Notes: generated by a model not told the origin, from the letters alone. A stretch of DNA of 64,000 nucleotides from Thermoplasmatota archaeon (GCA_965234725.1 CBDDUX010000026.1:53223-117222), one strand, 5' to 3'; shown: positions 27,938 through 53,102, counted from the stretch's first letter. Numbers and translations: made by a program.

Positions 27938-28789
27938 ATGTCCAGGGAGAAACCAAGGATCAAGGTCATCCTGATAGCACAGGATTACGAGATGAGGATA
28001 GCTTCAGATATCCTCCTCCTAACCTATTACATGGATAAGGAGCTTGGAATTGAACCCTGGATAACGATCTTCGATAACGGTTCCAAGGATAGGACAAGTA
28101 TAATTGCAAGGAAACTTGGAGCGACCCTTATCAGGTCCAATGAGAGAAGAATAAAGAAGGATATTGTCGAAGAGGTTATGGCCACTGGTATAAAGAACAA
28201 TATCAACACACTGATAATCATTGACGTCCAGGGTGGGAACACAGCTGATGATGCGATCAGTCTCATGGCAAGGTCCATCGCTGAGGGCGTTCGGTTCGCA
28301 TCCGCATATATAAGACCCGAAAAAGGAATGAGCGGGATCGGATGCTGGGCAATAGACAAGGGAATACTTGTCAAGATCGGGAGGGGGGAGGAGCTGGACA
28401 TTCAGAAAAGGATACTGGAACTCGCTTCCAAACAGGACCTTGAACTTTGGGCGATATCTGAAGAGATCTCTCTTCAGTCCAAGAAGAACAGACGTAAACT
28501 TTTCCAACTTTTCAAGAGGTCACCTGGTGAAGTGATGACCGGTCTTATCAAGTATCATCCGCTTTCGGTCTATGGTCTGACAGGACTGATACTATTATGC
28601 CTGGCATTGTTCAGTGGGTTCTATACAGTGGATTATTTCTACAGCCACAACGAGTTGAACTACTTCCCGGCTTTCATAACCATGGCCCTTGCAATGATTG
28701 GTGGATTTTTCATGGTGGCTGGTCTTTTCCTGAACACATTGAACATACTTGCTGAGAGATTGGAGGCAATGGCCAAGTGGAACGAGTGA
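27938..28789 (+). CDS. Degenerate GT2-fold membrane protein (no canonical DxD), two C-terminal TM helices
   Basis: FDNGSKDRT retained; IDVQGGN where active GT2s have IDGDGQH; HPL..YG followed by 2 TMs. ATG 27938 is the likely start. Confidence 0.7.
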   Translation: MSREKPRIKVILIAQDYEMRIASDILLLTYYMDKELGIEPWITIFDNGSKDRTSIIARKLGATLIRSNERRIKKDIVEEVMATGIKNNINTLIIIDVQGGNTADDAISLMARSIAEGVRFASAYIRPEKGMSGIGCWAIDKGILVKIGRGEELDIQKRILELASKQDLELWAISEEISLQSKKNRRKLFQLFKRSPGEVMTGLIKYHPLSVYGLTGLILLCLALFSGFYTVDYFYSHNELNYFPAFITMALAMIGGFFMVAGLFLNTLNILAERLEAMAKWNE

Positions 28790-29730
28790 GACTGATGGGC
28801 ATAAGGAGAAGGTTGAAGGTCGCGGTCGCGATTCCCGCAAAGAACGAGCAGAGGACAATAGGTACTATCGTTACCATCTCAAGGGAATATGCTGACAAGG
28901 TCGTTGTGATCAATGACGGATCCACGGATAAAACAGCTCTAGTCGCTCTATTGGCCGGTGCCGAAGTATTGTCTCATCGGATCAACAAAGGAAAGGGAGC
29001 TGCCATTGCCACAGCCCTTAAATGGGCCATGAAAGAAGAGATGGATATACTGGTATTCATAGATGGTGACGGTCAGCACGATCCAGGTGCTATCCCGGAT
29101 CTGGTAGGACCTATTGTGAGAGGAGAGACGGACATCACCATCGGATCAAGATGGCATCATGATCAAGGCCTCAAGGAGATGCCAATTCACCGACTCCTCG
29201 GGAATTGGATCCTCAGCACAGCCACATCCCTGTCGCTTTCAAAGATGATAAGAGATTCCCAATCCGGTTTCAGGGCCTTCCATAAAAGGACCTTCCCCGC
29301 TTTCATGCAGTCGATCGAGATGGGATTCGCAGTGGAATCCGAGATGATAGCACTGGCTGACAAGGCAGGTTTCGGATGGAAGGAATTGGGAATAAAAGCT
29401 TCCTATAATGACCTTGATGCCAATACCGAGAGCTCTTGGTATCATGGTCTATCGGTACTTGGAAAGGCACTTAAGGTCATGAGGCTCCAGAAACCAGGGA
29501 GGTTCTTTGGAGCTTTCTCCTTATTATCCTTCCTGATCGTAGTGGCCCTTGCTTTCTATGGAAGGATTTCCCATCCTGATGAGAAGCTCCTTCCCCTTTA
29601 CCTCCTTTACTTGATTTCTTTCTTTATTATTTGCGGTGGATTTTTTATGTTCTCAGCTATAATTGTTTCAGGTATGGACAGGATATCCGAGAGGATATTC
29701 AAATTGATGATATCACTCCTTAAGAGATGA
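28777..29730 (+). CDS. GT2 glycosyltransferase (polyprenyl-phosphate sugar synthase-like)
   Basis: IPAKNE, NDGSTDKT, NKGKG, DGDGQHDP, GSR, DSQSGFRA; two C-terminal TMs. Confidence 0.92.
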   Translation: MERVRLMGIRRRLKVAVAIPAKNEQRTIGTIVTISREYADKVVVINDGSTDKTALVALLAGAEVLSHRINKGKGAAIATALKWAMKEEMDILVFIDGDGQHDPGAIPDLVGPIVRGETDITIGSRWHHDQGLKEMPIHRLLGNWILSTATSLSLSKMIRDSQSGFRAFHKRTFPAFMQSIEMGFAVESEMIALADKAGFGWKELGIKASYNDLDANTESSWYHGLSVLGKALKVMRLQKPGRFFGAFSLLSFLIVVALAFYGRISHPDEKLLPLYLLYLISFFIICGGFFMFSAIIVSGMDRISERIFKLMISLLKR

Positions 29731-29791: not shown

Positions 29792-29974
29792 ATGGAAATG
29801 ATGGTGGAGATCAAGGCATCCGTCCGGTCCTTGGGCTCATGTATTCTCGCTTCCTGTGACAGCTGCAGGTCCTATGGTTTCGGTGATAACGAGTATGAGG
29901 CGGTCCTCAGATTGAAATCAAATATCAATCAGATGTACGGATGTATATTCCCCATGGATAATATCAATATTTAA
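29792..29974 (+). CDS. Small HicB N-terminal-like protein
   Basis: Beta-beta-beta-alpha pattern ILASC...SYGFGDNEYEAVLRL. Confidence 0.5.
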   Translation: MEMMVEIKASVRSLGSCILASCDSCRSYGFGDNEYEAVLRLKSNINQMYGCIFPMDNINI

Positions 29975-30225: not shown

Positions 30226-30396
30226 ATGACTACAAACAATGTGATATCCCTCAAAGAGGTAGAACTGGAGGTAGACAAGAAGAGCCTCCTAAGGAATTGG
30301 GACTCGATCTCATCGATCGGTAATCCCGCCTTCGAGACCAATTCGAGGGAGATCCTTCTTTTCAGGTATCCCGATAGAAAAATGGAAAGGGCCTGA
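30226..30396 (+). CDS. YP-motif small protein 1 (56 aa, ...NSREILLFRYPDRKMERA)
   Basis: Own translation; TATA box and RBS present; full-length paralog of 33262-33429. Confidence 0.8.
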   Translation: MTTNNVISLKEVELEVDKKSLLRNWDSISSIGNPAFETNSREILLFRYPDRKMERA

Positions 30397-30554
30397 TCAC
30401 AAGAATGGATGAAATCCTCAAATTGGTCGTAGATAGAAAGGTTCAAGAGCAGTTCTATTTAGGATCATTTCAGGTTTAATACTATTAAATATTTAAATTT
30501 GGAAATGTCTTTCAATGTCAGGTTTAATATAACATGTTCAACATATTCTAATTT

Positions 30555-30863
30555 ATGGTGGGTGATAGCAAAGGCTGTAGAACCCCCGTTAAAAAGAAGG
30601 GTTCCAAGGATCCTGATTGTCTTGAGGAGGTCATCGATCGATTCAATAAAGGTATCGATGATGTCGATGAGGCTATAATGGACGAGGATAGTCTGACCAA
30701 TGGTCACGATAAGGTCTCACTCAAGGATTCCATCATCGAGAACCACTTCACCAAACCATCAGATATCGAGAAGGATATCTCTTGGAAAGAAGAGGAGACA
30801 ATACCTATTCACGAACTCGTCATCAGGAATCCGAAGGATCGGGGCCTGAAGAAGAGAAAGTGA
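30555..30863 (+). CDS. Acidic hypothetical protein
   Basis: 102-aa ORF with genome-typical codon usage inside AT-rich spacers. Confidence 0.6.
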   Translation: MVGDSKGCRTPVKKKGSKDPDCLEEVIDRFNKGIDDVDEAIMDEDSLTNGHDKVSLKDSIIENHFTKPSDIEKDISWKEEETIPIHELVIRNPKDRGLKKRK

Positions 30864-30930
30864 TCCATATTCTTATCATTATCGATAATCTGATGAACGG
30901 TATTTTAAGCAAGGTAACCGATGATTACCT

Positions 30931-31113
30931 ATGAGGGCATCTTTGGAGCTTCCTACAAGGATAAGGAAGAAGGGTGATACCTTTATTGCCGAATGTGCTG
31001 AGATGGGTTTACATGAAATTGGAAATACCGAGGAAGAGGCCAGAGAGAGATTGATGATCAAAGCTAGGAAGTTTCTTTTATCATCTATGGTGGAAAATTC
31101 CATACTGACATGA
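30931..31113 (+). CDS. Small HicB N-terminal-like protein
   Basis: IRKKGDTFIAEC.EMGL...GNTEEEARERL matches the HicB-type pattern. Confidence 0.65.
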   Translation: MRASLELPTRIRKKGDTFIAECAEMGLHEIGNTEEEARERLMIKARKFLLSSMVENSILT

Positions 31114-31256
31114 ACGTGAAAGAGATACCCTTAAATAAATCCGTTCGTTGCAACCGCCCGGAGATGAATGTGGTGGAGACTTCTACTGACTTTGACCATG
31201 ATGATGCCAACAGGAGGGAAAGGAGAATTGTCATCCTTTCCTATCCAATTTCCTGA
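31110..31256 (+). CDS. YP-motif small protein 2 (48 aa, ...RRERRIVILSYPIS)
   Basis: Own translation; ATGA overlap with the upstream HicB-like ORF. Confidence 0.7.
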   Translation: MNVKEIPLNKSVRCNRPEMNVVETSTDFDHDDANRRERRIVILSYPIS

Positions 31257-31351
31257 AATGATCTAGACAATTGGCAATTGAACAGTACATTTGGTTTGAT
31301 TTTCAATTGATGTAACTGAGATGGTCTTGTTTAAATAATTAATAGGATTAG

Positions 31352-31450
31352 ATGTTCTTGATGGATCTATTATTGGAGAGGAGGAACGATGAGGTCGAAA
31401 GACCTCTGAAGAGAGAGATCGTGATCCTCACATATCCCCTAGGAAATTGA
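31352..31450 (+). CDS. YP-motif small protein 3 (32 aa, ...PLKREIVILTYPLGN)
   Basis: Own translation; TTTAAATA box ~20 nt upstream; alternative ATG at 31361. Confidence 0.7.
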   Translation: MFLMDLLLERRNDEVERPLKREIVILTYPLGN

Positions 31451-31608
31451 ACCTGATATTCATTGAACACAGCCTAGGTTTTCCCATGTACAAATCGAAC
31501 CAAGGCCCATGCTTTCCTACCTTCATACTGATAGAAATGTTACCTAAATTGATACTGAACATAAAAGTTTTATATACCCAGAGCAACAATTATTTATTAG
31601 GTGATCAA

Positions 31609-31713
31609 ATGGATGCTTCATACAGGCTTCGACAGTTCAAGGATCAAGCCTCAAGGCTCCATTCGATCTACCTGACAAATGTCCCTTTCTCCAAGGACAA
31701 GAAAAGGACATAG
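31609..31713 (+). CDS. Small protein (34 aa, MDASYRLRQFKDQASRLHSIYLTNVPFSKDKKRT)
   Basis: TTTATATA at 31569-31576 and GGTGA RBS at 31600-31604; this is the 3' part of track ORF 31447-31713. Confidence 0.6.
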   Translation: MDASYRLRQFKDQASRLHSIYLTNVPFSKDKKRT

Positions 31714-31852
31714 ATTTTTTTTTCTGGAAAAAACCTCTATTAGGAACGAAAAGACACCCCGGAGGGGCCCTCTGAAACCCACTATGGGCTCCTTCAATTC
31801 GACCTGATCAATGTGTAACAGGTTTTAAAGATAATATTACCATTCGGATATT

Positions 31853-32074
31853 ATGAACGATAAGGAGATGTTCCTCAAGAAGATGAGGGCGATGTCCTTG
31901 ATAAAAGCCGAGCTGATGAGTTCCGGAAAGGATCCCGAGATAATACAACGGTTACTGATGGATGAATATGACCGGAAGGAGGAAAACGGGATCTCGAAGA
32001 TGATAGAGAGGATCGACCTCGACAATGGAGAGGACTTTAAAGGATTGATGAAAATGGTATTTAAAAGGATCTGA
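31853..32074 (+). CDS. Small helical hypothetical protein
   Basis: 73-aa ORF, genome-typical codon usage, TTTTAAA box upstream. Confidence 0.65.
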   Translation: MNDKEMFLKKMRAMSLIKAELMSSGKDPEIIQRLLMDEYDRKEENGISKMIERIDLDNGEDFKGLMKMVFKRI

Positions 32075-32402
32075 TCCTCTTTGGAAATCTGAACATCTAT
32101 CGAGACCTTTCGCAAATTAGTAATCTTACTATCTATCCGGAATGATCTGATTTTTGGTATGAAAATTGGGCATCATAGTATCGCCCTTTTTTCATACCCA
32201 CGCAAAGCAGTGTCTGTAATTGACGCTCTGTTTTGCTGTGTTTCGAACTTTCGATGTGATGTAGTTATGACGGGAGAAAGTTACGAAAAAACTCGCTCCA
32301 CATTTTCATAATCTTTTTTGAACAACAGTTCATGAGAGTTTTGTGATACTTTGTTCAATATTCTGATAATTGAAGACCAAAATTAAAATACCCACTTGAT
32401 CA

Positions 32403-32597
32403 ATGGATAATGTGGTAACACTGTGGGACCCTGCTCAGGACTACCACCCGGAAATCCATTTTTTTCAAGGTCCCAAAGATACCTCTATTGAAACCACGAG
32501 GGAAATAGCAAAATATGTCGCACCGGGGCCCGGATCTATGGCGGGAAACGGGCCCACTTCTTCTTCTGAGTATTCATCCTTCAGAGTTGCATCCTGA
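32403..32597 (+). CDS. Small hypothetical protein
   Basis: 64-aa GC-richer ORF within AT-rich spacers. Confidence 0.5.
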   Translation: MDNVVTLWDPAQDYHPEIHFFQGPKDTSIETTREIAKYVAPGPGSMAGNGPTSSSEYSSFRVAS

Positions 32598-33040
32598 AAG
32601 TAGAACGATATGTGCATCCGTTATTCAGTGTTCAACCGGGTTCTTGTTGAGAGAACAATAGGTATTTGAACTGTTCAATATACGATTGTTCACATCCGTT
32701 TTTTACTTTTGATAATCCAATAAACTGGTTTATATATGTTTAGACATTTATTCCATCTGGTGTGGCCTATTTATATCGTTAGGGGGAAAATGGCAAAGCT
32801 TCCATTGAACCTCTCTTTCATTATTGACCAGTGCCGATGATAAACAGAGAGTGTGAGCTCCGTGATGGAAGTTGCGGTACTATCAGCGAAAGCCTTCAGG
32901 GAAGATCCTTTCTTTAGATAAATATTGGAACAACCGTTATTTGAACACTTTTTTTGAAATTTCGTATTATTATCATTCGATGTAATCCATCGGGTTCCCT
33001 TTATATAGTTCAGCAATAGATGGTTTCCACAGTGAGAAAA

Positions 33041-33130
33041 ATGGGAACCAACGGAAACAAAGGATCAACAACGGAAGAGAGCGATCTTCACCACCAGCGA
33101 CAGATCGTGATACTCACCTATACCTTCTGA
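33041..33130 (+). CDS. YP-motif small protein 4 (29 aa, ...HHQRQIVILTYTF)
   Basis: Own translation; TTTATATA at 33000-33007; alternative in-frame ATG at 33020. Confidence 0.7.
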   Translation: MGTNGNKGSTTEESDLHHQRQIVILTYTF

Positions 33131-33261
33131 AAATATTGGTTCCTGCTGACCGATCCTTCTTTTAGGTCCATTGACAGTTTCCTTGACATTGTTGATAGTC
33201 GAATTTATATATTTGAAAGGACTGGCTTGGTTTGCATCCAATATCCCCCAAAGGTGATAGC

Positions 33262-33429
33262 ATGACCAAGAAGATCCAGCCAATGAGAGAGATCGAGATG
33301 GAGATAGGCAGAGCAGGTCTTATCTCCAACATGGATAAGATGGAATCTTCGTTCGGTGGGGACATGTTCACCCATTCAAGGGAGATCATTCTTTTCCGAT
33401 ATCCACCCAAGGCCGGAATGAAGCTTTGA
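33262..33429 (+). CDS. YP-motif small protein 5 (55 aa, ...HSREIILFRYPPKAGMKL)
   Basis: TTTATATA at 33204-33211, AAGGTGA RBS, ATG 33262; paralog of 30226-30396. Confidence 0.8.
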   Translation: MTKKIQPMREIEMEIGRAGLISNMDKMESSFGGDMFTHSREIILFRYPPKAGMKL

Positions 33430-33593
33430 TATGGGATTGACCTTCAATATAACCCCCAATTTTTTAATAATTTAGTTCAATTTCTTTGTGTACATTTGGT
33501 CGGGACTGTTTTCCTCCATGGTTACCACTCTCGATTTTTATTTTTTAAACGTTTAAGACAAGGCCTTCATATAGGTATTAATAATTGTAAAAG

Positions 33594-34577
33594 GTGTTTT
33601 ATTTGGTAGAACATAGGGATATCCTGAAACTGGATATTGAAAGGGAGATAGATAGGATAAGATCCTTTCTCAATGACCATTTCAATGAATATAGAAAAGA
33701 TGGTGCCATTATCGGTCTTAGCGGTGGAATTGATTCCGCAGTGGTTTCCGCACTCCTTGTGGATACGATAGGTAAGGAAAAGGTGAAAGGTATCATCCTT
33801 CCCGAAAAGGAATCGAACCCTATCAGCAAAGAACTTGGGATCCAACAGGCTGAGAAATTGGGTATCGAATACGAGGTATTCGATATAACCGGGGTCCTAG
33901 AGGCCTTTGGAACATACAGTATGAGAGATGAGGCGGTCAGAGAAGTATTTCCCGATCATACAGAAGAATGCAGGATGAAACTCGTTCTTCCCGGGGGCCT
34001 CATGGAAAATTACACTTACAACATCTTTTCCTTGACGGTGACCTATCCAGATGGAAGGGAGGAAACAAAAAGACTTCCAAAGAAGGTCATTAACAGGATA
34101 CTTGCCGCAACAGATACAAAGCAAAGGACCAGGATGATGGCCTTATACTATCATGGTGAGAGTCTATTTCGTTCTGTTGTGGGAACGACAAATCGTCCGG
34201 AGACCTTACAGGGTTTCTTCGTGAAATACGGTGATGGTGGAGTGGATATCGAACCCATTGCCCATCTTTACAAGAACCAGGTATACCAGCTTGCAGACCA
34301 TTACGGGGTCGTCAAAGAGATAATAGAAAGAGAACCCTCCCCTGATACGTTTTCCTTCCCTGTAAGCGATGAGGAATTCTTCTTCAGGATCCCGTACGAG
34401 ATCCTTGATCTTGTCCTCTATTGTTGGGAGAGGGGTATCGGAATTCCAGAGGCATCAAAAATTACTGATCTTAAAGAGGAGCAAGTTGAAAGGGTATACC
34501 GTGACCTTACCTCGAAATTCAAAGCTACCAAGCACTTGAGAGAAATGACTCCCTCTCTGTTGAAAATGGGATTTTAA
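33594..34577 (+). CDS. nadE: NH3-dependent NAD synthetase-like N-type ATP pyrophosphatase with a central insertion
   Basis: GLSGGIDSAV, KQRTRM, GTTNR.E, GFFVKYGDG, PIAHLYK.QV, PSPD. Confidence 0.85.
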   Translation: MFYLVEHRDILKLDIEREIDRIRSFLNDHFNEYRKDGAIIGLSGGIDSAVVSALLVDTIGKEKVKGIILPEKESNPISKELGIQQAEKLGIEYEVFDITGVLEAFGTYSMRDEAVREVFPDHTEECRMKLVLPGGLMENYTYNIFSLTVTYPDGREETKRLPKKVINRILAATDTKQRTRMMALYYHGESLFRSVVGTTNRPETLQGFFVKYGDGGVDIEPIAHLYKNQVYQLADHYGVVKEIIEREPSPDTFSFPVSDEEFFFRIPYEILDLVLYCWERGIGIPEASKITDLKEEQVERVYRDLTSKFKATKHLREMTPSLLKMGF

Positions 34578-34608
34578 CGTTCATTAGGTCAATAAGAAGG
34601 TCAGTTCA

Positions 34609-35781
34609 ATGAAGGTCCTTTTCCTTCCAAAGGAAGGTCACCCCCTTAAACGTGTTAGATTGACCGAGCTTTTCATGCGGGAATTTGTGTCATTAGGTAA
34701 TGAGATAGATTGGGTACTGACCTCATTTGAAAATGAAAGGAGTAACATTCATGTTCCCTTCGGAGGAGGTCTTCTATCCAATCTCATTCTACCTTTCTAT
34801 AGAATGAAGAAGTTAAGAATTTCAGAGAAGATCCTTAGGAAGGAGAAACCTGATATCATCATAGCAAATGATGGGATAATTGAAGGTTTGATAGCATCGA
34901 GATTATCAAGAAAGTACGACATCCCATTTTGCTACTACCTCTCATCCCTTTTCACAGATATGGAGAAGAACGAGTTTCTTGCAGGTGGAAAACCAAAAAA
35001 TCTCGTGAAATGGTTGGCAATGGTGATCAAGGAACCATTGAGGACCCGTGTTATCAAGAGATGTAATGTATTCCATCCAATTTCGGATGCCATGGGTCGA
35101 CCATTTATTAAGATATGTACTGGTATTATCCATCCTCTTCCTCTCTGTCCTTCACATATATTTTTAGAGACAGAAGTGGGGTCGACAAGTGACTTTGACA
35201 TTGGAATTGAATTGGTATATACAGGCCAGGTCACACCGAATAGAAAGATAGAGCTTCTTTTAGAGATCGTCAAGGCCCTCAAGGAAGGAACTGATAAGAA
35301 TGTTAATTTGACAATAGTAGGCAGGATCTTCTACAGTAGTTATGAGAGATTCCTTAAGAAGAAAATGGCTCAATTAGGGATAGAGGATCATGTTGAGATC
35401 ATCCCTGAGGTCCCAATCAGTAGAATACCAGCAATAATCAGGAAGTCAAACATCGGACTCTGTCTCCTACCACCGATAAGATCATTTATTGTTTCCTCCC
35501 CGACCAAGGTTGTTGAATATCTATCTCTTGGAATACCTGTTGTCGCAAATAAAGAGATAGAGGATCAAAAGGTAATAATTCAAAATTCCAAGGGTGGTTT
35601 CTCGCCTGCATATGATAAGAAAGAGATAGTTGATTCTATTCTTGCATTAGTAGGGGAGGCGGATATGGCTGTTGAGATGGGCCTTAAGGGTAGGAGATGG
35701 ATACAGGAGAACAGGAACTATCAAAAAATGGCAGTGGAACTGGATTCTCTATACAATGGGATAATAGGAGATAGACCATGA
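34609..35781 (+). CDS. GT4 glycosyltransferase
   Basis: YTGQV, SPTKVVEYLSLGIPVVAN. Confidence 0.88.
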   Translation: MKVLFLPKEGHPLKRVRLTELFMREFVSLGNEIDWVLTSFENERSNIHVPFGGGLLSNLILPFYRMKKLRISEKILRKEKPDIIIANDGIIEGLIASRLSRKYDIPFCYYLSSLFTDMEKNEFLAGGKPKNLVKWLAMVIKEPLRTRVIKRCNVFHPISDAMGRPFIKICTGIIHPLPLCPSHIFLETEVGSTSDFDIGIELVYTGQVTPNRKIELLLEIVKALKEGTDKNVNLTIVGRIFYSSYERFLKKKMAQLGIEDHVEIIPEVPISRIPAIIRKSNIGLCLLPPIRSFIVSSPTKVVEYLSLGIPVVANKEIEDQKVIIQNSKGGFSPAYDKKEIVDSILALVGEADMAVEMGLKGRRWIQENRNYQKMAVELDSLYNGIIGDRP

Positions 35782-36155
35782 GGATAATCGGTATTGGAGT
35801 CGATGTCATCGATATTGATAGGGCTCGGGAATTATTTGAAAAGGAGAGGACCCTAGAGAGGGTTTTTACTGATAATGAGATCAATGCAAGCAGTCAGAGG
35901 GCTGACAGGTTGAAGAACCTTGCCGGATGGTTCGCCCTGAAGGAAGCAGTCCTGAAATCCCTAAAGGCTCCAAGGGACACTGGCATTTTATTGCAGGATA
36001 TCGAGGTCCTCCATGGTGAGAACGGTGAACCAGTATGTGATCTGCATGGAAAGGCAAGGGATATCTTCCTGGATTCCGGAGGGGAAGAGTTGATGGTCTC
36101 CGTTTCCCATTCTGAAAAGTCAGCCGTGGGAGTCGCCATCTGTATAGGAAGCTAA
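35778..36155 (+). CDS. acpS: Holo-[acyl-carrier-protein] synthase (AcpS-type phosphopantetheinyl transferase)
   Basis: IGIGVDVI, RVFT..E, AG.FA.KEAVLKSL, G.P, VSVSH. Confidence 0.93.
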   Translation: MRIIGIGVDVIDIDRARELFEKERTLERVFTDNEINASSQRADRLKNLAGWFALKEAVLKSLKAPRDTGILLQDIEVLHGENGEPVCDLHGKARDIFLDSGGEELMVSVSHSEKSAVGVAICIGS

Positions 36156-36215
36156 CATGTCTGGCCACAGCTATAATGATACGAATTGTGTTTAGATCTT
36201 GGTGAGAAATTGGAG

Positions 36216-36356
36216 ATGAAGACAAACACCGGCAGAACAACTTTCATAGATAACAATGAAATAGAAAATTACCGGATATTCGACCTGGAAGGAAGTGATA
36301 CTAGGGATTGTTCACGTCCATGCAGGCAGATAATCATGCTCAGGTATCCCGAGTGA
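36216..36356 (+). CDS. YP-motif small protein 6 (46 aa, ...CSRPCRQIIMLRYPE)
   Basis: Own translation; GGTGA RBS at 36201-36205. Confidence 0.72.
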   Translation: MKTNTGRTTFIDNNEIENYRIFDLEGSDTRDCSRPCRQIIMLRYPE

Positions 36357-36424
36357 TTCCAAGATTAGGGTAATAATATAATTTCACTGGACCAGTTAAA
36401 TAGATAGGGTTTTACTGTAATATT

Positions 36425-36547
36425 ATGGATAATGAAGACTCCAATGAGAATAAAAGGAGAATTAACTCTAAGGAGGTCAAGATCAGTTTTCTTTCTTATC
36501 CTTTTGAAATAAAAAAGGTGAAAAAAGATAGCGTTGAGATCGAATGA
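36425..36547 (+). CDS. YP-motif small protein 7, degenerate (40 aa, ...KEVKISFLSYPFEIKK...)
   Basis: Own translation; motif spacing conserved. Confidence 0.55.
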   Translation: MDNEDSNENKRRINSKEVKISFLSYPFEIKKVKKDSVEIE

Positions 36548-38140: not shown

Positions 38141-38977
38141 ATGAAGAGAATGAAGATGGGCATCTATGTAATAGTCAAAGATAATGAGATGCTGATCTCA
38201 TCAAAACTACTTCTTTTAAAATATAAGCTCCTTCAAAAAGGGATAACCCACATAGAGATCATAGGTATCGACAATGGTTCCAATGACCGCACTGCAGAGG
38301 TCATGCATTCATCCGGATTCAGGGTCGTAAAACACAATACGACAAGAAGCCTGGAGAGGAACGTAGAAGAGATCAAGAAACAGGTGGAAAAGTACCAGCA
38401 TGAGATCATTGTTGTTCTTGACGGAAATTCATCTGTAGAGATCGATACCGTGGTGGAACTGATAGTGTCTTTCCTGGATGCCAAGAAGAAACCGGGTATG
38501 GGATATATCTCCGAGGTTTCGGATGAAGAGATCGTTAATATGAACTGTCTTATTTTCCTGGCACCTGTTTTCCAGCAAATATCGATCAAAGGTTCCAACA
38601 TCAGAAGCGAGGAACATCTTATATCGTTCGGAAGATCCATGGGTCTAAATGTTGAAGCGAGAAAACCTGTTTTCACAAGAGATAGCAAAGAAAGCCATCT
38701 TCAGAGGATCCCATTGAAATCCGCATGGGACCTGATAAACCAGTACAAGAAGACCTATCCGTTGAGGTATTACGGATTCATCTCCCTTGCATTCTTTGTT
38801 TTTGCCCTTGCCCCCGGGATATATGAGATAAATTACATGATGAAATATACCCACTTGAATTACCCTTCCTTCTTCCTAACAGTGGTCCTTGGTGGAATTG
38901 GAATGGTATCATTATCCCTGGGTTTGATAATGAATGCTTTGAAGGTCCTTTCCGATAAGGTCAGAGGTATGATGTGA
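38141..38977 (+). CDS. Degenerate GT2-fold membrane protein, paralog of 27938-28789
   Basis: IDNGSNDRT retained, VLDGNSS in place of DGDGQH; YPL.YYG followed by TMs, HLNYP.F. Confidence 0.72.
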   Translation: MKRMKMGIYVIVKDNEMLISSKLLLLKYKLLQKGITHIEIIGIDNGSNDRTAEVMHSSGFRVVKHNTTRSLERNVEEIKKQVEKYQHEIIVVLDGNSSVEIDTVVELIVSFLDAKKKPGMGYISEVSDEEIVNMNCLIFLAPVFQQISIKGSNIRSEEHLISFGRSMGLNVEARKPVFTRDSKESHLQRIPLKSAWDLINQYKKTYPLRYYGFISLAFFVFALAPGIYEINYMMKYTHLNYPSFFLTVVLGGIGMVSLSLGLIMNALKVLSDKVRGMM

Positions 38978-38997: not shown

Positions 38998-39981
38998 ATG
39001 GATGAGGATATCACATTGTTCCCGGAAAAGGCGAGGATCGGAGTGGCAATATTTGCCTACAACGAGGAGAGTACCGTTCCTTCGATCGTTGTACTTACCA
39101 AGCCTTATACGAAACGGATACTGGTTGTGGATGACGGTTCCAATGACAACACCAAGGTCCTTGCCAAACAGGTTGGGGCCGAGGTAATATCTTTCCCAAG
39201 TAATCTAGGAAAGGGTTACGGTCTGAAAACCGCCTTTGAGTGGGCTATAAAGAACGATCTGGATGTTCTGGTGACCATAGACGGAGATGGTCAGCATGAC
39301 CCAGGGATAATACCATTCCTTGCGGAACCTGTCATAAAGGACAAATTCCAGATCACTATAGGATCAAAAGGTTTCACTTATCAGGGAAAGAGCAGGAAGG
39401 GGTTAAGCTGGAGATTAGGAAACTGGATGACGAAAAAGGCATCAGGGAACAAGACCAGGACGTCCATTTATGACAGAAGATCCGGATTTCGGGCCTATCA
39501 TAAGAAAACATTCGACAAGTTCAAGTTCACATCGAAAGGGTTCGAACAGGAAAGGGATATACTTCTCCAGGCAGATGTTAAAGGTTTCAAGATCGAAGAG
39601 ATCCCGATGAAGGCCATTTACGGCCAGATGAGCAAGGAGGATATCGGTCTCGGAAACTGGGTCCTATCAAAGATATACAATACGATGTCATTTCTCCATA
39701 TCACATCCCCCATCAGATTGTCCATACTGATCAGTTTGTTCTTCTTCGGACTGACCATCGCTGCGGTGGCTTATTCACGTGTGAATTATTCGAATTATGA
39801 ATTCCTTCCCCCCGGTGGGATATTCGTTGTTATGGTCCTTGTATCACTTTCGGGTTTTATATTGTTGAACGGTATAATATTCGAGGCGATCAAACATATT
39901 GGATCGAACATGACCTCATATCTTCAGAAGAACGATCAGGTCAAGCTGGAATATGATCCGCTAAAGGGATTCCAGAGATAA
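38998..39981 (+). CDS. GT2 glycosyltransferase, paralog of 28777-29730
   Basis: AYNEE, DDGSND.T, NLGKG, DGDGQHDP, SGFRAY. Confidence 0.92.
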   Translation: MDEDITLFPEKARIGVAIFAYNEESTVPSIVVLTKPYTKRILVVDDGSNDNTKVLAKQVGAEVISFPSNLGKGYGLKTAFEWAIKNDLDVLVTIDGDGQHDPGIIPFLAEPVIKDKFQITIGSKGFTYQGKSRKGLSWRLGNWMTKKASGNKTRTSIYDRRSGFRAYHKKTFDKFKFTSKGFEQERDILLQADVKGFKIEEIPMKAIYGQMSKEDIGLGNWVLSKIYNTMSFLHITSPIRLSILISLFFFGLTIAAVAYSRVNYSNYEFLPPGGIFVVMVLVSLSGFILLNGIIFEAIKHIGSNMTSYLQKNDQVKLEYDPLKGFQR

Positions 39982-45581: not shown

Positions 45582-46916
45582 ATGTCTTATATTAATAAAT
45601 TATTTAATTACTGTTATTATTGTACTAAAGGTCCAGTTTTAAAAACTCTAAAATTTTATAATAAAAGTCAATATTGGGATATTGATAAAATAGAAGAATT
45701 TCAAACAAATAAAATGAGAAATTTATTAATTTATGCTGACAAATATGTGCCTTATTATAATATTTTGTTTAAAAGTATAGAGTTAAATGTGGAAAAATGT
45801 ACAATTGATGAGATTAAAAAAATACCACCCTTAACAAAAGATATAATAAATAATAATCGAGAACAGTTAATCTCTAAAATATATAAAAAATATCAATATA
45901 GATCAAACTCTACAGGAGGATCATCAGGAAAAATATTACAATTTTTAAATGATAAAAAAAATTTGTATCAATCAGAATCTATATATTTAAGGAACAATGC
46001 TTGGGCAAATTTCAAATTAGGTGATAAATATTGCCAATTATGGGGTAGTAAAATTGATGAGACAAATATGAAAAATATTTTATATAAGTTTATTAATATA
46101 TTACATGGAAGGGAATTTTTTTCTTCATATAATTTAACAAATAATAATATGAGAAATTATATGAATAGTATGAATATGTTTAAACCAAAAATTTTAGTAG
46201 GATATCCATCTTCGTTAAAGATATTTTCTATATTTTTAAAAAAAAATAATTTTAAAAATATATCAATAAAAAGCATAATAACTTCTGGAGAAACTTTAGA
46301 ACAAGAAGATCGTCACTATATTGAAAATATATTTCATTGTAAAGTGTTTAATAGATATGGAAGTAGAGAAATCAGTTCAATCTCTCATGAATGTGAAATG
46401 CATGATGGTTTGCACATCAACTCTGAGCACATATATCTTGAAATAATTAAGGATAAATTAGATCAATATCAAGATAATGAGAAATATGGAAAAATTATTA
46501 TTACCGATTTAGATAATTTTGCGATGCCTTTTATAAGATATGAAATAGGTGATTTGGGTAAGTATCATGATTGTAAATGTGAATGTGGAAGAAATCTTCC
46601 CTTAATGAAAATACTTGGTAGAACTTATGATATTATAATTGATAAAAATGGAAATTATATCGATGGTCATTTTTTCTCTAGAATAATACCTTCTGGTAAT
46701 TATGGGATAAAGGAATTTCAAATAATTCAAGAAGAAAAAGGAAGAATAATTCTTAAAGTTGTATCTGAACAAGATAATCTAGAAAAAATTTTAGTTACAA
46801 AAATTAATAAGAAATTACATAATTTAATTGTTGATATTGAACATGTAGATTCTATTCAGAAACCCATTTCAGGTAAGAGAAAAATTGTTATTTCAAAAAT
46901 TAATGGAAATGATTGA
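45582..46916 (+). CDS. Phenylacetate-CoA ligase/CapK-like adenylate-forming enzyme
   Basis: STGGSSG, GYPS, YGSRE, MPFIRYEIGD, C.CGR.LP, SGKRK. Confidence 0.88.
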   Translation: MSYINKLFNYCYYCTKGPVLKTLKFYNKSQYWDIDKIEEFQTNKMRNLLIYADKYVPYYNILFKSIELNVEKCTIDEIKKIPPLTKDIINNNREQLISKIYKKYQYRSNSTGGSSGKILQFLNDKKNLYQSESIYLRNNAWANFKLGDKYCQLWGSKIDETNMKNILYKFINILHGREFFSSYNLTNNNMRNYMNSMNMFKPKILVGYPSSLKIFSIFLKKNNFKNISIKSIITSGETLEQEDRHYIENIFHCKVFNRYGSREISSISHECEMHDGLHINSEHIYLEIIKDKLDQYQDNEKYGKIIITDLDNFAMPFIRYEIGDLGKYHDCKCECGRNLPLMKILGRTYDIIIDKNGNYIDGHFFSRIIPSGNYGIKEFQIIQEEKGRIILKVVSEQDNLEKILVTKINKKLHNLIVDIEHVDSIQKPISGKRKIVISKINGND

Positions 46917-50200: not shown

Positions 50201-51874
50201 ATGAAAAACAAGATTTTTATTATTTTCATTCTCTTATTCTTACATATATTAAGTATAATGTTTCTAATAATCAATGAAGATTATACTTATTATGCAAATT
50301 TTTATAAAAGTATTCCATTAATCTTCATTATAGTTTTTTTATTGACCGATATTAGTTCAATATATCTTATATTAAGAAGTGGAAGAAATATTATTTTATA
50401 TTATATTGTGATAATTTCTAATATTATTTTTGTAAACTTACCTATTTTTTTAAAAATGTATTTCTGGTTGGGAAATGGAGATCCAGCTAGTCATGTTGGA
50501 ATCATTAATGAAATTAATAATACTAAAACATTAAATGATAATATTGTATATCCTCTAATACATATAAAGACTCTAAACCTTATATATGTTACAAATATCT
50601 CTACTATTATTAATATGAATATTGTAATAATAGTTTTTTCAATCATATACTTCATATTCATATCTTTAATAATGAGAAAGATTTTTAAGACAAAATATAT
50701 GATATTTTCAATCTTTTTATTTGTACCTATTCATATTTGGTTTACAAATTTTACAGCCAATCATATGGCAAATCTTTTTTTTCCTATAGTTGTATTTTTA
50801 TTTATATTATCATACAATGATAAATCAAAAAATAATTTAATTTTATTTTCCATTATATTGATGATATATTCAATATTTCATCCAAATCCAACAATAATAG
50901 TATTGATATTTTTAGTAACAGCATATTTCATTTCTAAAGACAGAAGATATTTATTTCTTTTTACTATGGTAGCGATTATCTTTATACTTTGGATATCAAA
51001 AATATATGTGTGGAATCTTACTATCAATCAACTATATCAATCAATGTTAGGAAATACAGAAAATAATATTACTCAAGTAAGTAATAGAATAAATTATGCT
51101 ACTGGAAAAAACATTGATATTGTTGCATATTTCATTAAAATTTATTTATTAAAACTATTTTTAGCAATATTATTTTTATATGTTCTTATAAAACAACTAA
51201 TTATTAAAAGAAATAGAAATAGATTGGTATTAGTTTTCTTTGTATTTAATATTATAATTTATTCTTTGATATTGATTCTTTACTTCATTAATGCTGGCTC
51301 AGATCCCTTAAGATTGCTAATTTATCCTACAATAATTTCTTCGATATTAATTGTTACGTTTTTCAAAAAAATAATATTAAATAAAAATAAAATAATTATT
51401 TTTTCGATAATATTAATTCTATTTACTTTTAGTTATTCATCTTTATTTCCTTCCCCTTACATATATAAAATAAATTATTATACACCTCAGAAGGAATTTA
51501 ATATGATGGACTATTATTTATCGCATAAAGCAGATAATTATTATATTTCTACAATATCAATTCAACCACAACGATTTGAGGATTTCTTTATTAATGATAC
51601 AAATCATATCGAAGATTCAGAATTGTATGATAAAATCATTCCTGTTCCATTGCATTTTAACTACAATGTTTCTAATACGATAAATACGAATATCACTGAA
51701 AATACATATTTAATATTATGCCAAAGGGATGAAATGATATATAGGGATCTTTATCCCGAACTTTCAAAAATTAGATTTACTGAAAATGATTTTATATTAT
51801 TATCAAGCGATATTTCAATAAATAAAATTTATACTAATCAATATGGATATATCTATATTACAGAGAGTGTATGA
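50201..51874 (+). CDS. Polytopic membrane protein of the glycan locus (polymerase/GT-C-like)
   Basis: More than 10 hydrophobic segments; GD..SH and YP..H loop motifs; soluble C-terminal domain. Confidence 0.65.
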   Translation: MKNKIFIIFILLFLHILSIMFLIINEDYTYYANFYKSIPLIFIIVFLLTDISSIYLILRSGRNIILYYIVIISNIIFVNLPIFLKMYFWLGNGDPASHVGIINEINNTKTLNDNIVYPLIHIKTLNLIYVTNISTIINMNIVIIVFSIIYFIFISLIMRKIFKTKYMIFSIFLFVPIHIWFTNFTANHMANLFFPIVVFLFILSYNDKSKNNLILFSIILMIYSIFHPNPTIIVLIFLVTAYFISKDRRYLFLFTMVAIIFILWISKIYVWNLTINQLYQSMLGNTENNITQVSNRINYATGKNIDIVAYFIKIYLLKLFLAILFLYVLIKQLIIKRNRNRLVLVFFVFNIIIYSLILILYFINAGSDPLRLLIYPTIISSILIVTFFKKIILNKNKIIIFSIILILFTFSYSSLFPSPYIYKINYYTPQKEFNMMDYYLSHKADNYYISTISIQPQRFEDFFINDTNHIEDSELYDKIIPVPLHFNYNVSNTINTNITENTYLILCQRDEMIYRDLYPELSKIRFTENDFILLSSDISINKIYTNQYGYIYITESV

Positions 51875-53102
51875 TATGAAAAAAATCCTAATCATTTCAT
51901 TTTATTATCCTCCAAATAATTCGATTGGAGGAAAGCGTATGTATTATTTAATAAAAAATTTAAAAAATGATCAAAATTATAAACTTACATTAATCACTAG
52001 TGAACCAAATGTTAATGATTCTAGTATTGAAGTAAAATGTTTAAAATTTTTTGATATATTCAATGAAAATATTAAAAAAAATATAAAAAATACTAAAGGT
52101 AAAATAAGAAGTGATAAGAATAAAAGTGTTAAAAAATTTTTAAATAAAATTCAATTTTTAATATTTTTTCCGGAACATTATTTATTATTATGGTATATAC
52201 CTAACATTATTAAAATTAATAAAATCAGAAAAAATAATAATTTTGATTACATTATTTCTTCTTCACCGCCAAATGTTGTCCATTTTATCGGAAAATTTTT
52301 TAAAAATAGGAATAATATTTGGATAGCTGATTTTCGTGATCCATGGGAAAAAAGGTATAGTAATAAACACTCATTGATGAATTTTATTGATGGGAAAATT
52401 AAATTGAAAACAATATTAAAAGCAAATATTATAACATGTATATCTGATTACTATCTCAATGGATTAAAAAATAAAAATAATAATACTAAATATTATAAAA
52501 TTATGAATTCTTATGATTCAAATGAATATAAATGTAAGGTAAAATTACTAGAGAAATTCACAATTACTTATACGGGATCACTATATGGTGGAAAAAGGAA
52601 TCCAGAGATTCTATTCAAAGCTATAAGATCATTGTTGGATAAAAAAATAATGGAAATAAATAACATTCAAATTCGATTTTATGGTAATGATAGTTATACA
52701 ATACTTGACAAAATTCAATATTATAAATTATCAGATATTGTTGAATTACATAGAAATATTGATCACAAAGATATTATTAATAAACAAAAAGAATCACATT
52801 TGTTATTATTATTATTAGTAGATCAAGAAGATGAATATGGTGTCTTCACTGGTAAATTTTTTGAATATATAGGAGCTAAAAGGCCAATATTATCCATAGG
52901 TCCCAAATCTGAAATTCAGAAATTTATTATAAATAAAAAAATTGGAATTCATACCAATAACCAAAAGAATTTAGAAAAATATTTGTTGTTTCAATATAAT
53001 AATTATATAAATAATGCTGAAATATATTATAATAATAAATTTGATAATGAAAAATATTCAGATAAAAAGATGTCTGAAAATTTTAAAAAGTTATTAAAAT
53101 GA
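51843..53102 (+). CDS. GT4-like glycosyltransferase
   Basis: YYPP, SSSPP, ADFRDPW, YTGSLY, GKFFEY. Confidence 0.85.
   Translation: MDISILQRVYDMKKILIISFYYPPNNSIGGKRMYYLIKNLKNDQNYKLTLITSEPNVNDSSIEVKCLKFFDIFNENIKKNIKNTKGKIRSDKNKSVKKFLNKIQFLIFFPEHYLLLWYIPNIIKINKIRKNNNFDYIISSSPPNVVHFIGKFFKNRNNIWIADFRDPWEKRYSNKHSLMNFIDGKIKLKTILKANIITCISDYYLNGLKNKNNNTKYYKIMNSYDSNEYKCKVKLLEKFTITYTGSLYGGKRNPEILFKAIRSLLDKKIMEINNIQIRFYGNDSYTILDKIQYYKLSDIVELHRNIDHKDIINKQKESHLLLLLLVDQEDEYGVFTGKFFEYIGAKRPILSIGPKSEIQKFIINKKIGIHTNNQKNLEKYLLFQYNNYINNAEIYYNNKFDNEKYSDKKMSENFKKLLK

Follow-up and report, generated by a model that had tools for sequence, protein, structure and literature searches.

Archaeal small proteins that bind larger enzymes and modulate them have been described in Methanosarcina, where sP26 of Methanosarcina mazei is reportedly linked to glutamine synthetase (bioRxiv 10.1101/2020.05.06.080432) and MtrR to the Mtr complex (PMC13370731). 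As reported, they are a few dozen residues long, separately encoded, without an enzymatic fold of their own, and thought to bind a larger enzyme. A further described microprotein of a surface-polymer pathway is DltX, a membrane protein whose invariant C-terminal Tyr, within FXYXXF, takes D-Ala from a carrier protein during D-alanylation of teichoic acid, and which works with MBOAT and SGNH proteins (PMC12148441). Here we analysed one strand of 64,000 nucleotides from a Thermoplasmatota archaeon (GCA_965234725.1, CBDDUX010000026.1:53223-117222), referred to as the window, which is part of contig C26 of a genome of 3.54 Mb in 114 contigs (G000). Seven short open reading frames (ORFs) of the window (w1 to w7, Table 1) share a C-terminal motif R-x-I-h-h-h-x-Y-P (h, hydrophobic), and comparison of their sequences argues that they are a genuine lineage-restricted family of presumably separately expressed microproteins of about 26-60 residues. 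By analogy, the family may be most like the enzyme-binding small proteins of Methanosarcina in its working. It has no sequence relation to them, and differs in being multi-copy (nine members in one genome), in having one C-terminal motif, in lying in glycan clusters, and in having a partner that is a candidate only.

Reading and translation of the window confirmed the coordinates, the plus-strand orientation and the motifs that an earlier note on this DNA had given for the seven ORFs. The strict motif pattern R.I[ILVMF]{3}.YP fitted five of them (w1, w2, w3, w5, and w6). The ortholog of w4 in the same-genus genome G003 ends in YP, unlike the YT of G000, and w7, which we regard as a probable but weak member, carries V for R and S at the first hydrophobic place, with no ortholog found. 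Alignment of w1 with w5 showed 35% identity over the full length, in agreement with their description as full-length paralogs. In the six-frame translation of G000, the strict motif occurred nine times, against 0-2 times (mean 1.0) in each of ten simulated first-order Markov genomes, a ninefold excess. Five of the nine occurrences fall within 6.3 kb of the window, and two, on contigs C22 and C40, belong to true paralogs that match w1 and w5 over their full length, which together with the seven window ORFs gives a family of nine members in G000. The remaining two, one within an 878-residue frame (C14) and one antisense to a 1839-residue ORF (C54), are the background expected by chance. Across the members, the motif lies 1-20 residues from the stop codon.

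G003 holds a collinear copy of the stretch from 24.1 to 34.5 kb of the window with about 71% DNA identity, and orthologs of w1 to w5 were found in it. Relatives of w6 were found elsewhere, on contig C2 of G003, in G014, and on contig C5 of G012, and a 17-residue ORF after AcpS in G003 retains the motif. Comparison of the 54 motif codons in six G000/G003 pairs showed 21 synonymous and 4 non-synonymous differences, indicating that the peptide is what selection keeps, as had been proposed from the synonymous variation among the window copies. Synonymous and non-synonymous differences numbered 4 and 1 for w2, 4 and 0 for w3, 3 and 1 for w4, and 4 and 1 for w5. The N-terminus of w2 could not be aligned between the two genomes, while its motif was intact. 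Third codon positions of w1 hold 20 of its 32 base differences to G003; the antisense frame of w1 has the same wobble positions, yet that strand has no ORF of at least 80 residues that is retained in G003. Direct reading of the sequence showed TATA-like boxes and G-rich ribosome-binding sites, which G003 retains for w1, w4, and w5; ahead of the ATG of w1, these are a G run and a TATA-like box. G-rich ribosome-binding sites also precede the ATG in several genera, the w3 copy of G003 lacks an ATG, so that translation would have to begin at a TTG, and none of the family matches at E<=1e-5 contained an internal stop. The view of these ORFs as separate genes, selected for their peptides and provided with conserved start signals of their own, was thus sustained.

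The members differ in what precedes the motif. Type A (w1, w5, and the members on C22 and C40; about 50-60 residues) has a conserved L-E-[VI]-[ED]-[RK]-x-S-L-L-S-N-x-D segment and, after a linker that varies, [ST]-R-x-I-L-L-[FL]-R-Y-P with basic residues behind it. Among 38 type A sequences, both Arg residues and the Tyr are invariant and the Pro is nearly so, and the C-terminus lies 4-20 residues past the motif. Type B (w2, w3, and w4; 26-48 residues) has a polar, unconserved N-terminus and then R-[EQ]-I-V-I-L-[ST]-Y-P, and type C (w6) has two Cys residues, as C-x-[RK]-P-C, ahead of the motif. The conserved unit in the short forms is the motif alone. AlphaFold2 modelling of type A from the 38 sequences gave a predicted template modelling score of 0.18, with a single helix at residues 9-29 and neither a sheet nor a globular fold; the extended motif was the most confident block, with a predicted local distance difference test score (pLDDT) of 84. 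Such a model is as would be expected of a peptide that becomes ordered on a partner. No signal peptide or membrane helix was found in the microproteins of the window and their database relatives, in which hydrophobic runs reach at most six residues.

A profile of the nine G000 members gave in-frame matches at E<=0.01 in 12 of the 24 genomes of the family-level clade, and all seven of its genera were represented, so the motif is kept in frame in relatives. No profile match at E<=0.001 was obtained in 13 genomes from other families of the class, and beyond the family-level clade the best match among 41 relatives (E 0.0145) was inside a 715-residue frame. The family is limited in range to one family-level clade of uncultured Thermoplasmatota archaea. 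Among 5.8 billion proteins, the type A profile matched 20, whose given names were all "hypothetical protein" and of which the four with an organism came from Thermoplasmatota metagenome-assembled genomes. Among 1.84 billion cluster representatives it gave 31 matches at E<=1e-3, 30 of which are 46-90 residues long. The sole long match, a 1393-residue coiled-coil repeat protein, was considered as a longer or fused form and taken as spurious; it aligns with the helix part only. The type B profile matched only itself and one 36-residue protein among the 5.8 billion, which indicates that gene-calling pipelines miss these genes. As the earlier note had stated, no recognised family could be assigned: there was no match in Pfam or NCBIfam, the best PDB sequence reached E 0.43, and the best ESM Atlas matches, to unnamed clusters, reached 0.76. 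A search of the literature for the motif strings and for archaeal small proteins and glycosyltransferases, with supplements outside its scope, found no publication on the family among the papers listed. The family belongs to no named family, and HicA, ACP, DltX-type proteins, precursors of ribosomally synthesized and post-translationally modified peptides (RiPPs), and leader peptides each fail at least one defining feature.

Functionless chance ORFs or decaying fragments might also be short and mostly uncalled, as these are, with the weak motif of w7 and the near-absence of type B from databases. The ninefold excess over the simulated genomes, the ratio of synonymous to non-synonymous changes and the conservation across seven genera with start signals argue against this explanation, which we consider extremely improbable; for w1 to w6, comparative evidence brings it close to refuted. 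No part of archaeal genomes is charted less well than their small proteins, and the present case is a clean multi-copy family, mostly missed by gene callers, that comparative genomics places under purifying selection despite its near-invisibility in protein databases.

Table 1. Microprotein genes and neighbouring genes of the window, with the evidence for each.
Feature	Coordinates	Strand	Evidence or remark
w1, type A, 56 aa	30226..30396	+	predicted helix, then REILLFRYP; profile E 2.4e-20; G003 ortholog 80% identical
w2, type B, 48 aa	31110..31256	+	RRIVILSYP; profile E 9.8e-16
w3, type B, 32 aa	31352..31450	+	REIVILTYP; profile E 2.0e-5
w4, type B, 29 aa	33041..33130	+	RQIVILTYT, T for P; profile E 8.1e-5
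w5, type A, 55 aa	33262..33429	+	REIILFRYP; profile E 9.3e-20; directly upstream of NadE-like gene
w6, type C, 46 aa	36216..36356	+	C-x-R-P-C, then RQIIMLRYP; profile E 1.2e-13; directly after AcpS
w7, probable weak member, 40 aa	36425..36547	+	VKISFLSYP; profile E 1.0e-3, weakest of the seven
GT2a, GT2-like membrane protein without DGD motif (by eye), first of pair	27938..28789	+	no Pfam match; clusters with GT2b-type proteins
GT2b, GT2 glycosyltransferase, DGDGQHD, C-terminal hydrophobic segments	28795..29730	+	PF00535 E 6.2e-22
HicB-like protein, C-terminally truncated, 60 aa, copy 1, between GT2b and w1	29792..29974	+	family alignments, hidden Markov model matches
HicB-like protein, C-terminally truncated, 60 aa, copy 2	30931..31113	+	AlphaFold2 fold, structural matches to HicB N-domains; no Pfam match
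NadE-like PP-loop enzyme	33594..34577	+	PF02540 E 2e-51
AcpS-type phosphopantetheinyl transferase	35778..36155	+	PF01648 E 2.7e-12

The genes lie in a surface-glycan cluster that contains two GT2 pairs, GT4 enzymes, a DUF354-type protein, deacetylases, hexapeptide transferases, a Wzx-type flippase, a NadE-like enzyme, and AcpS. Pfam confirmed the nadE-GT4-acpS neighbours through matches to NAD_synthase, Glycos_transf_1 (E 4.4e-17), and ACPS. In eight genomes from six genera (G000, G003, G010, G006, G023, G008, G013, and G012), a type A gene lies 47-1600 bases from the end of the GT2a/GT2b pair, and GT2a is present in 11 of the 12 genomes carrying microproteins. The reading that we tentatively favour, as possible rather than probable, is that the microproteins act in trans as docking peptides, with a partner that is likely to be encoded in the same glycan cluster. 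The functional unit would be [ST]-R-x-I-h-h-h-x-Y-P, a C-terminal strand that usually has basic residues after it. Unstructured alone, it would bind the partner as an added beta-strand or a groove ligand, with Arg and Tyr as anchors. Type B would then consist of little beyond the motif behind a disordered polar N-terminus, while the conserved amphipathic helix of type A could hold a second partner and make the peptide an adaptor. The best candidate partner, by neighbourhood and co-occurrence, would be the GT2a/GT2b pair, and the second, by gene adjacency, the 60-residue HicB-like protein; the expected effect would be the assembly or tuning of glycan enzymes. Co-folding of GT2a, GT2b, and w1 gave 0.54 for the complex versus 0.41 with GT2b replaced, in a single job, a difference that counts neither for nor against docking. 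With its invariant Arg and Tyr, the motif would be a new short linear motif, linked to a GT2-like/GT2 pair and a truncated HicB-fold protein of archaeal surface-glycan loci. If the peptides do tune or assemble these enzymes, they would be, to our knowledge, the first small-protein regulators of archaeal glycan synthesis.

Several results weigh against this reading. The presence of microproteins does not strictly coincide with that of either the GT2 pair or the 60-residue HicB-like protein. Of the 12 genomes without a microprotein match, 7 have GT2a all the same, among them G009 (95% complete), which also has GT2b and the 60-residue gene. No member of the 60-residue family was found in genera g5 and g7, of which both have type A and g7 also has type B. 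The type A paralogs on C22 and C40 are not beside glycan genes; they adjoin an AsnC-type regulator and a 190-residue putative PRC-barrel-like protein. Moreover, no family match was found in the same-genus genomes G001 (95% complete) and G004, so the family is dispensable within the genus. Of the earlier proposal that the peptides dock on one common target, the docking element is the part that finds some agreement, as the extended, confidently modelled motif would fit it, whereas no common target was found. The earlier note had missed the link to the 60-residue HicB-like genes, the constant place behind the GT2 pair, and the two paralogs that lie outside the window.

Some further observations concern these GT2 and type A loci. 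A second tandem pair (38141-38977 / 38998-39981) also consists of a GT2-like membrane protein without DGD and then a normal GT2. The first proteins of both tandem pairs have no or marginal Pfam matches, and the pair at 27938-28789 / 28795-29730 is conserved across the clade; the sequences suggest that such pairs may be pseudoenzyme-enzyme heteromers. The motif was considered as a copy or mimic of the GT2a segment ILLLTYY of G000 and this was rejected (hhalign E 0.087; the motif matrix ranks the segment 780th of 6880 frames). The loci on C22 (L001) and C40 (L002) are paralogous, with the type A gene divergent from the gene of an AsnC-type helix-turn-helix regulator, which is shortened to 90 residues on C22. 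A regulator shared with the window was also rejected; the AsnC-type regulator of C22/C40 has no relation to the 353-residue protein encoded ahead of the GT2 operon (BLASTP E 5.3).

The peptides might instead be cis-acting leader or ribosome-arrest peptides, whose conserved C-terminal residues would control a downstream gene by stalling the ribosome. Arrest peptides usually have their conserved residues, Pro included, just ahead of the stop, and here too only the final 10-12 residues, with a Pro among them and a stop close by, are conserved. In addition, the NadE-like gene follows w5 directly, and a DUF354-type gene lies downstream of w6 and w7. In G008 and G013, which represent one genus, however, the type A gene is convergent to GT2b and no gene follows it, which argues against a cis-acting leader, and an upstream position in the same direction was found for w5 and w6 only. 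The variable distance between motif and stop, the copies in succession (w2-w3, w4-w5, and w6-w7), and the conserved N-terminal helix of type A also speak against it. We consider this explanation very unlikely. The ribosome-binding sites of the genes themselves, the kept TATA-like boxes and the convergent type A genes without a downstream gene point to action in trans rather than in cis.

Besides the GT2 pair, a second recurrent association is with the 60-residue family, which is present twice in the window. The stop codon of copy 2 overlaps the ATG of w2 (ATGA), so that the two genes are translationally coupled, and across the clade 8 of 13 such genes have a motif microprotein gene immediately downstream. 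AlphaFold2 modelled copy 2 with a pLDDT of 78, with strands at residues 10-14, 17-22, and 27-31 and a helix at 34-56. Its best structural matches were HicB (UPF0150) N-terminal domains (3k6q_A, TM 0.77; 6g1c_V, Z 7.0 and root-mean-square deviation 1.2 over 53 residues; 2dsy_A, Z 7.5), although a Z below 8 is not decisive alone and double-stranded RNA-binding domains (dsRBDs) score close behind the HicB domains. Comparison of the 60-residue family with the genome's own HicB by hhalign gave a probability of 76% (E 2.3e-5 over 40 columns), while Pfam matched none of six members at E<=1 and a search of PDB sequences found nothing. The HicB-like label that this neighbour had received is supported by the fold and, less clearly, by profile comparison, although the protein is truncated: it ends 8 residues past the aligned helix, where canonical HicB has 19 more, and the fourth strand and the DNA-binding domain are absent. 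The family is lineage-restricted, with 10 database relatives, all of 51-68 residues and all "hypothetical".

This neighbourhood suggests another explanation, in which the truncated HicB-like protein and the microprotein would be a cognate pair in place of hicB-hicA, carried along by a variable glycan island as a passenger of the addiction or defence kind rather than as a glycan factor. In variants of it, the microprotein would take the place of the toxin partner, or would complete the HicB fold in trans with its missing last strand. The arrangement is like that of HicB-HicA, with a small HicB-fold protein that has the strand-strand-strand-helix core of the N-domain and then a small second gene, and the gene order is the same as that of the canonical pair of G000, where hicB (75 residues) is followed by hicA (76 residues). 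The adjacency and the ATGA overlap described above are in line with a pair, as is the alignment of the 60-residue family with the genome's HicB, which stops 19 residues short of the latter's end. In the HicB of S. pneumoniae, strand beta4, the strand missing here, belongs to the dimer interface of the N-domain (PMC6159526). The stretch from 29.7 to 33.6 kb (3.9 kb) is also a low-GC island (0.33-0.41) of small genes.

In contrast, the second gene is not HicA. The HicA toxin has a catalytic His after Gly-Ser, a C-terminal helix and a dsRBD-like fold, and the genome's own HicA has G-S-H, whereas in type A the strand is preceded by Ser/Thr-Arg and the catalytic place holds no His. No PF07927 match was obtained with the seven window peptides at E<=1 or with the 38 type A members at E<=10, and derivation of type A from HicA was rejected (hhalign probability against the genome's own HicA 0.08%), as was a relation of type A to the 60-residue family (0.15%). 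Microproteins also occur without the HicB-like protein, as in genera g5 and g7, and nine of them stand against two 60-residue genes in G000. The position after the GT2 pair is kept in six genera, unlike that of a mobile cassette, and no family match was found in phage, plasmid, or viral-contig collections. We consider a HicB-derived cassette unlikely; if the peptides do pair with the HicB-like protein, a toxin-antitoxin fold would have been put to new use.

The peptides could also be substrates or carriers, in which the motif would be a "follower" recognition sequence behind polar Ser/Thr/Asn-rich N-termini that enzymes of the locus modify, or the Tyr would be a covalent acyl or glycosyl acceptor as in DltX. 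Like RiPP precursors, they form several paralogous short genes in one cluster, with one conserved short sequence beside hypervariable remainders. They share with DltX a place in a surface-polymer pathway and a short conserved C-terminal motif around an invariant Tyr, and DltX provides a precedent for a C-terminal Tyr that receives D-Ala (PMC12148441). Behind type A in G010, G006, and G023 come an ACP-like gene, whose Pfam match falls just short of the cut-off (PF00550, E 6.8e-4), and NadE-like genes, and AcpS is present in the window. A carrier protein and an ATP-dependent PP-loop enzyme of the NAD-synthase family, for which carboxylate activation is predicted from the family, are nearby in some relatives, as with DltX. 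However, the present peptides have no membrane helix or signal peptide, and their motif is R-x-I-h-h-h-x-Y-P, unlike the FXYXXF of DltX. A Pfam scan of 29 large and two 60-residue ORFs between 22.6 and 54.9 kb recognised no MBOAT, SGNH, radical-SAM, YcaO, or lanthionine-type enzyme, no RiPP recognition domain, no peptidase or protease, and no ABC or other exporter; the ORFs at 45582-46916, 50201-51874, and 51843-53102 gave no Pfam match at all in that scan. The locus therefore lent no support to the precursor-peptide alternative of the earlier note. Differences from RiPP precursors are also that the conserved part is C-terminal and that the N-terminal helix of type A is conserved, unlike a variable core. 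In g5, type A has neither an ACP gene nor a NadE-like gene beside it. We consider the substrate or carrier explanation rather improbable.

A combination of these elements is improbable as well. In it, the motif would be a tag read by the HicB-derived module without its last strand, and the ACP, NadE-like, and glycosyltransferase enzymes of the cluster would acylate or glycosylate the nine peptides, as substrates or carriers, at the Tyr or the polar N-termini. If true, such a tag-reading module would be an archaeal modified-peptide or Tyr-shuttle system with a new kind of recognition domain. Derivation of type A from the ACP-like gene (PF00550) was rejected (hhalign probability against the ACP-like alignment 0.17%). 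In glycan clusters at L029 (G000 C3:2184-3466), L024, L014, and L028, the ACP-like protein (about 90-100 residues), which carries an I-D-S-T-G site, is encoded as a pair with a NadE-like PP-loop enzyme, and a carrier-protein step in archaeal glycan synthesis is unusual. By eye, the 1839-residue ORF of G000 (C54:21028-26547) appears to contain several tandem carrier-protein-like repeats. A weak CRISPR-DR47 match at 33608-33643, inside the start of the NadE-like gene, was taken as chance (29.2 bits versus a gathering score of 39, E 0.042).

Other small elements were observed between the microprotein genes. A 102-residue ORF (30555..30863, plus strand; sequence cluster "fam 9") is kept in G003 and has the C-terminus HELVIRNPKD followed by basic residues; judged by this motif-like end with Asn for Tyr, it may be a divergent long relative. 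Two small ORFs, 31610-31714 (34 residues) and 31853-32074 (73 residues), are kept in frame in G003, and the former comes with a GGTGAT ribosome-binding site and a TATA-like box. Neither could be assigned to a family, with just a weak DUF5617 match (E 0.14) for the 73-residue ORF. Two non-coding blocks, 31700-31830 and 32440-32570, had no Rfam match. They are 92% and 89% identical to G003, versus about 71% for the whole syntenic stretch, occur only in G000 and G003 among the 24 family genomes, and both contain GC-rich hairpins, which makes them candidate small RNAs or protein-binding sites.

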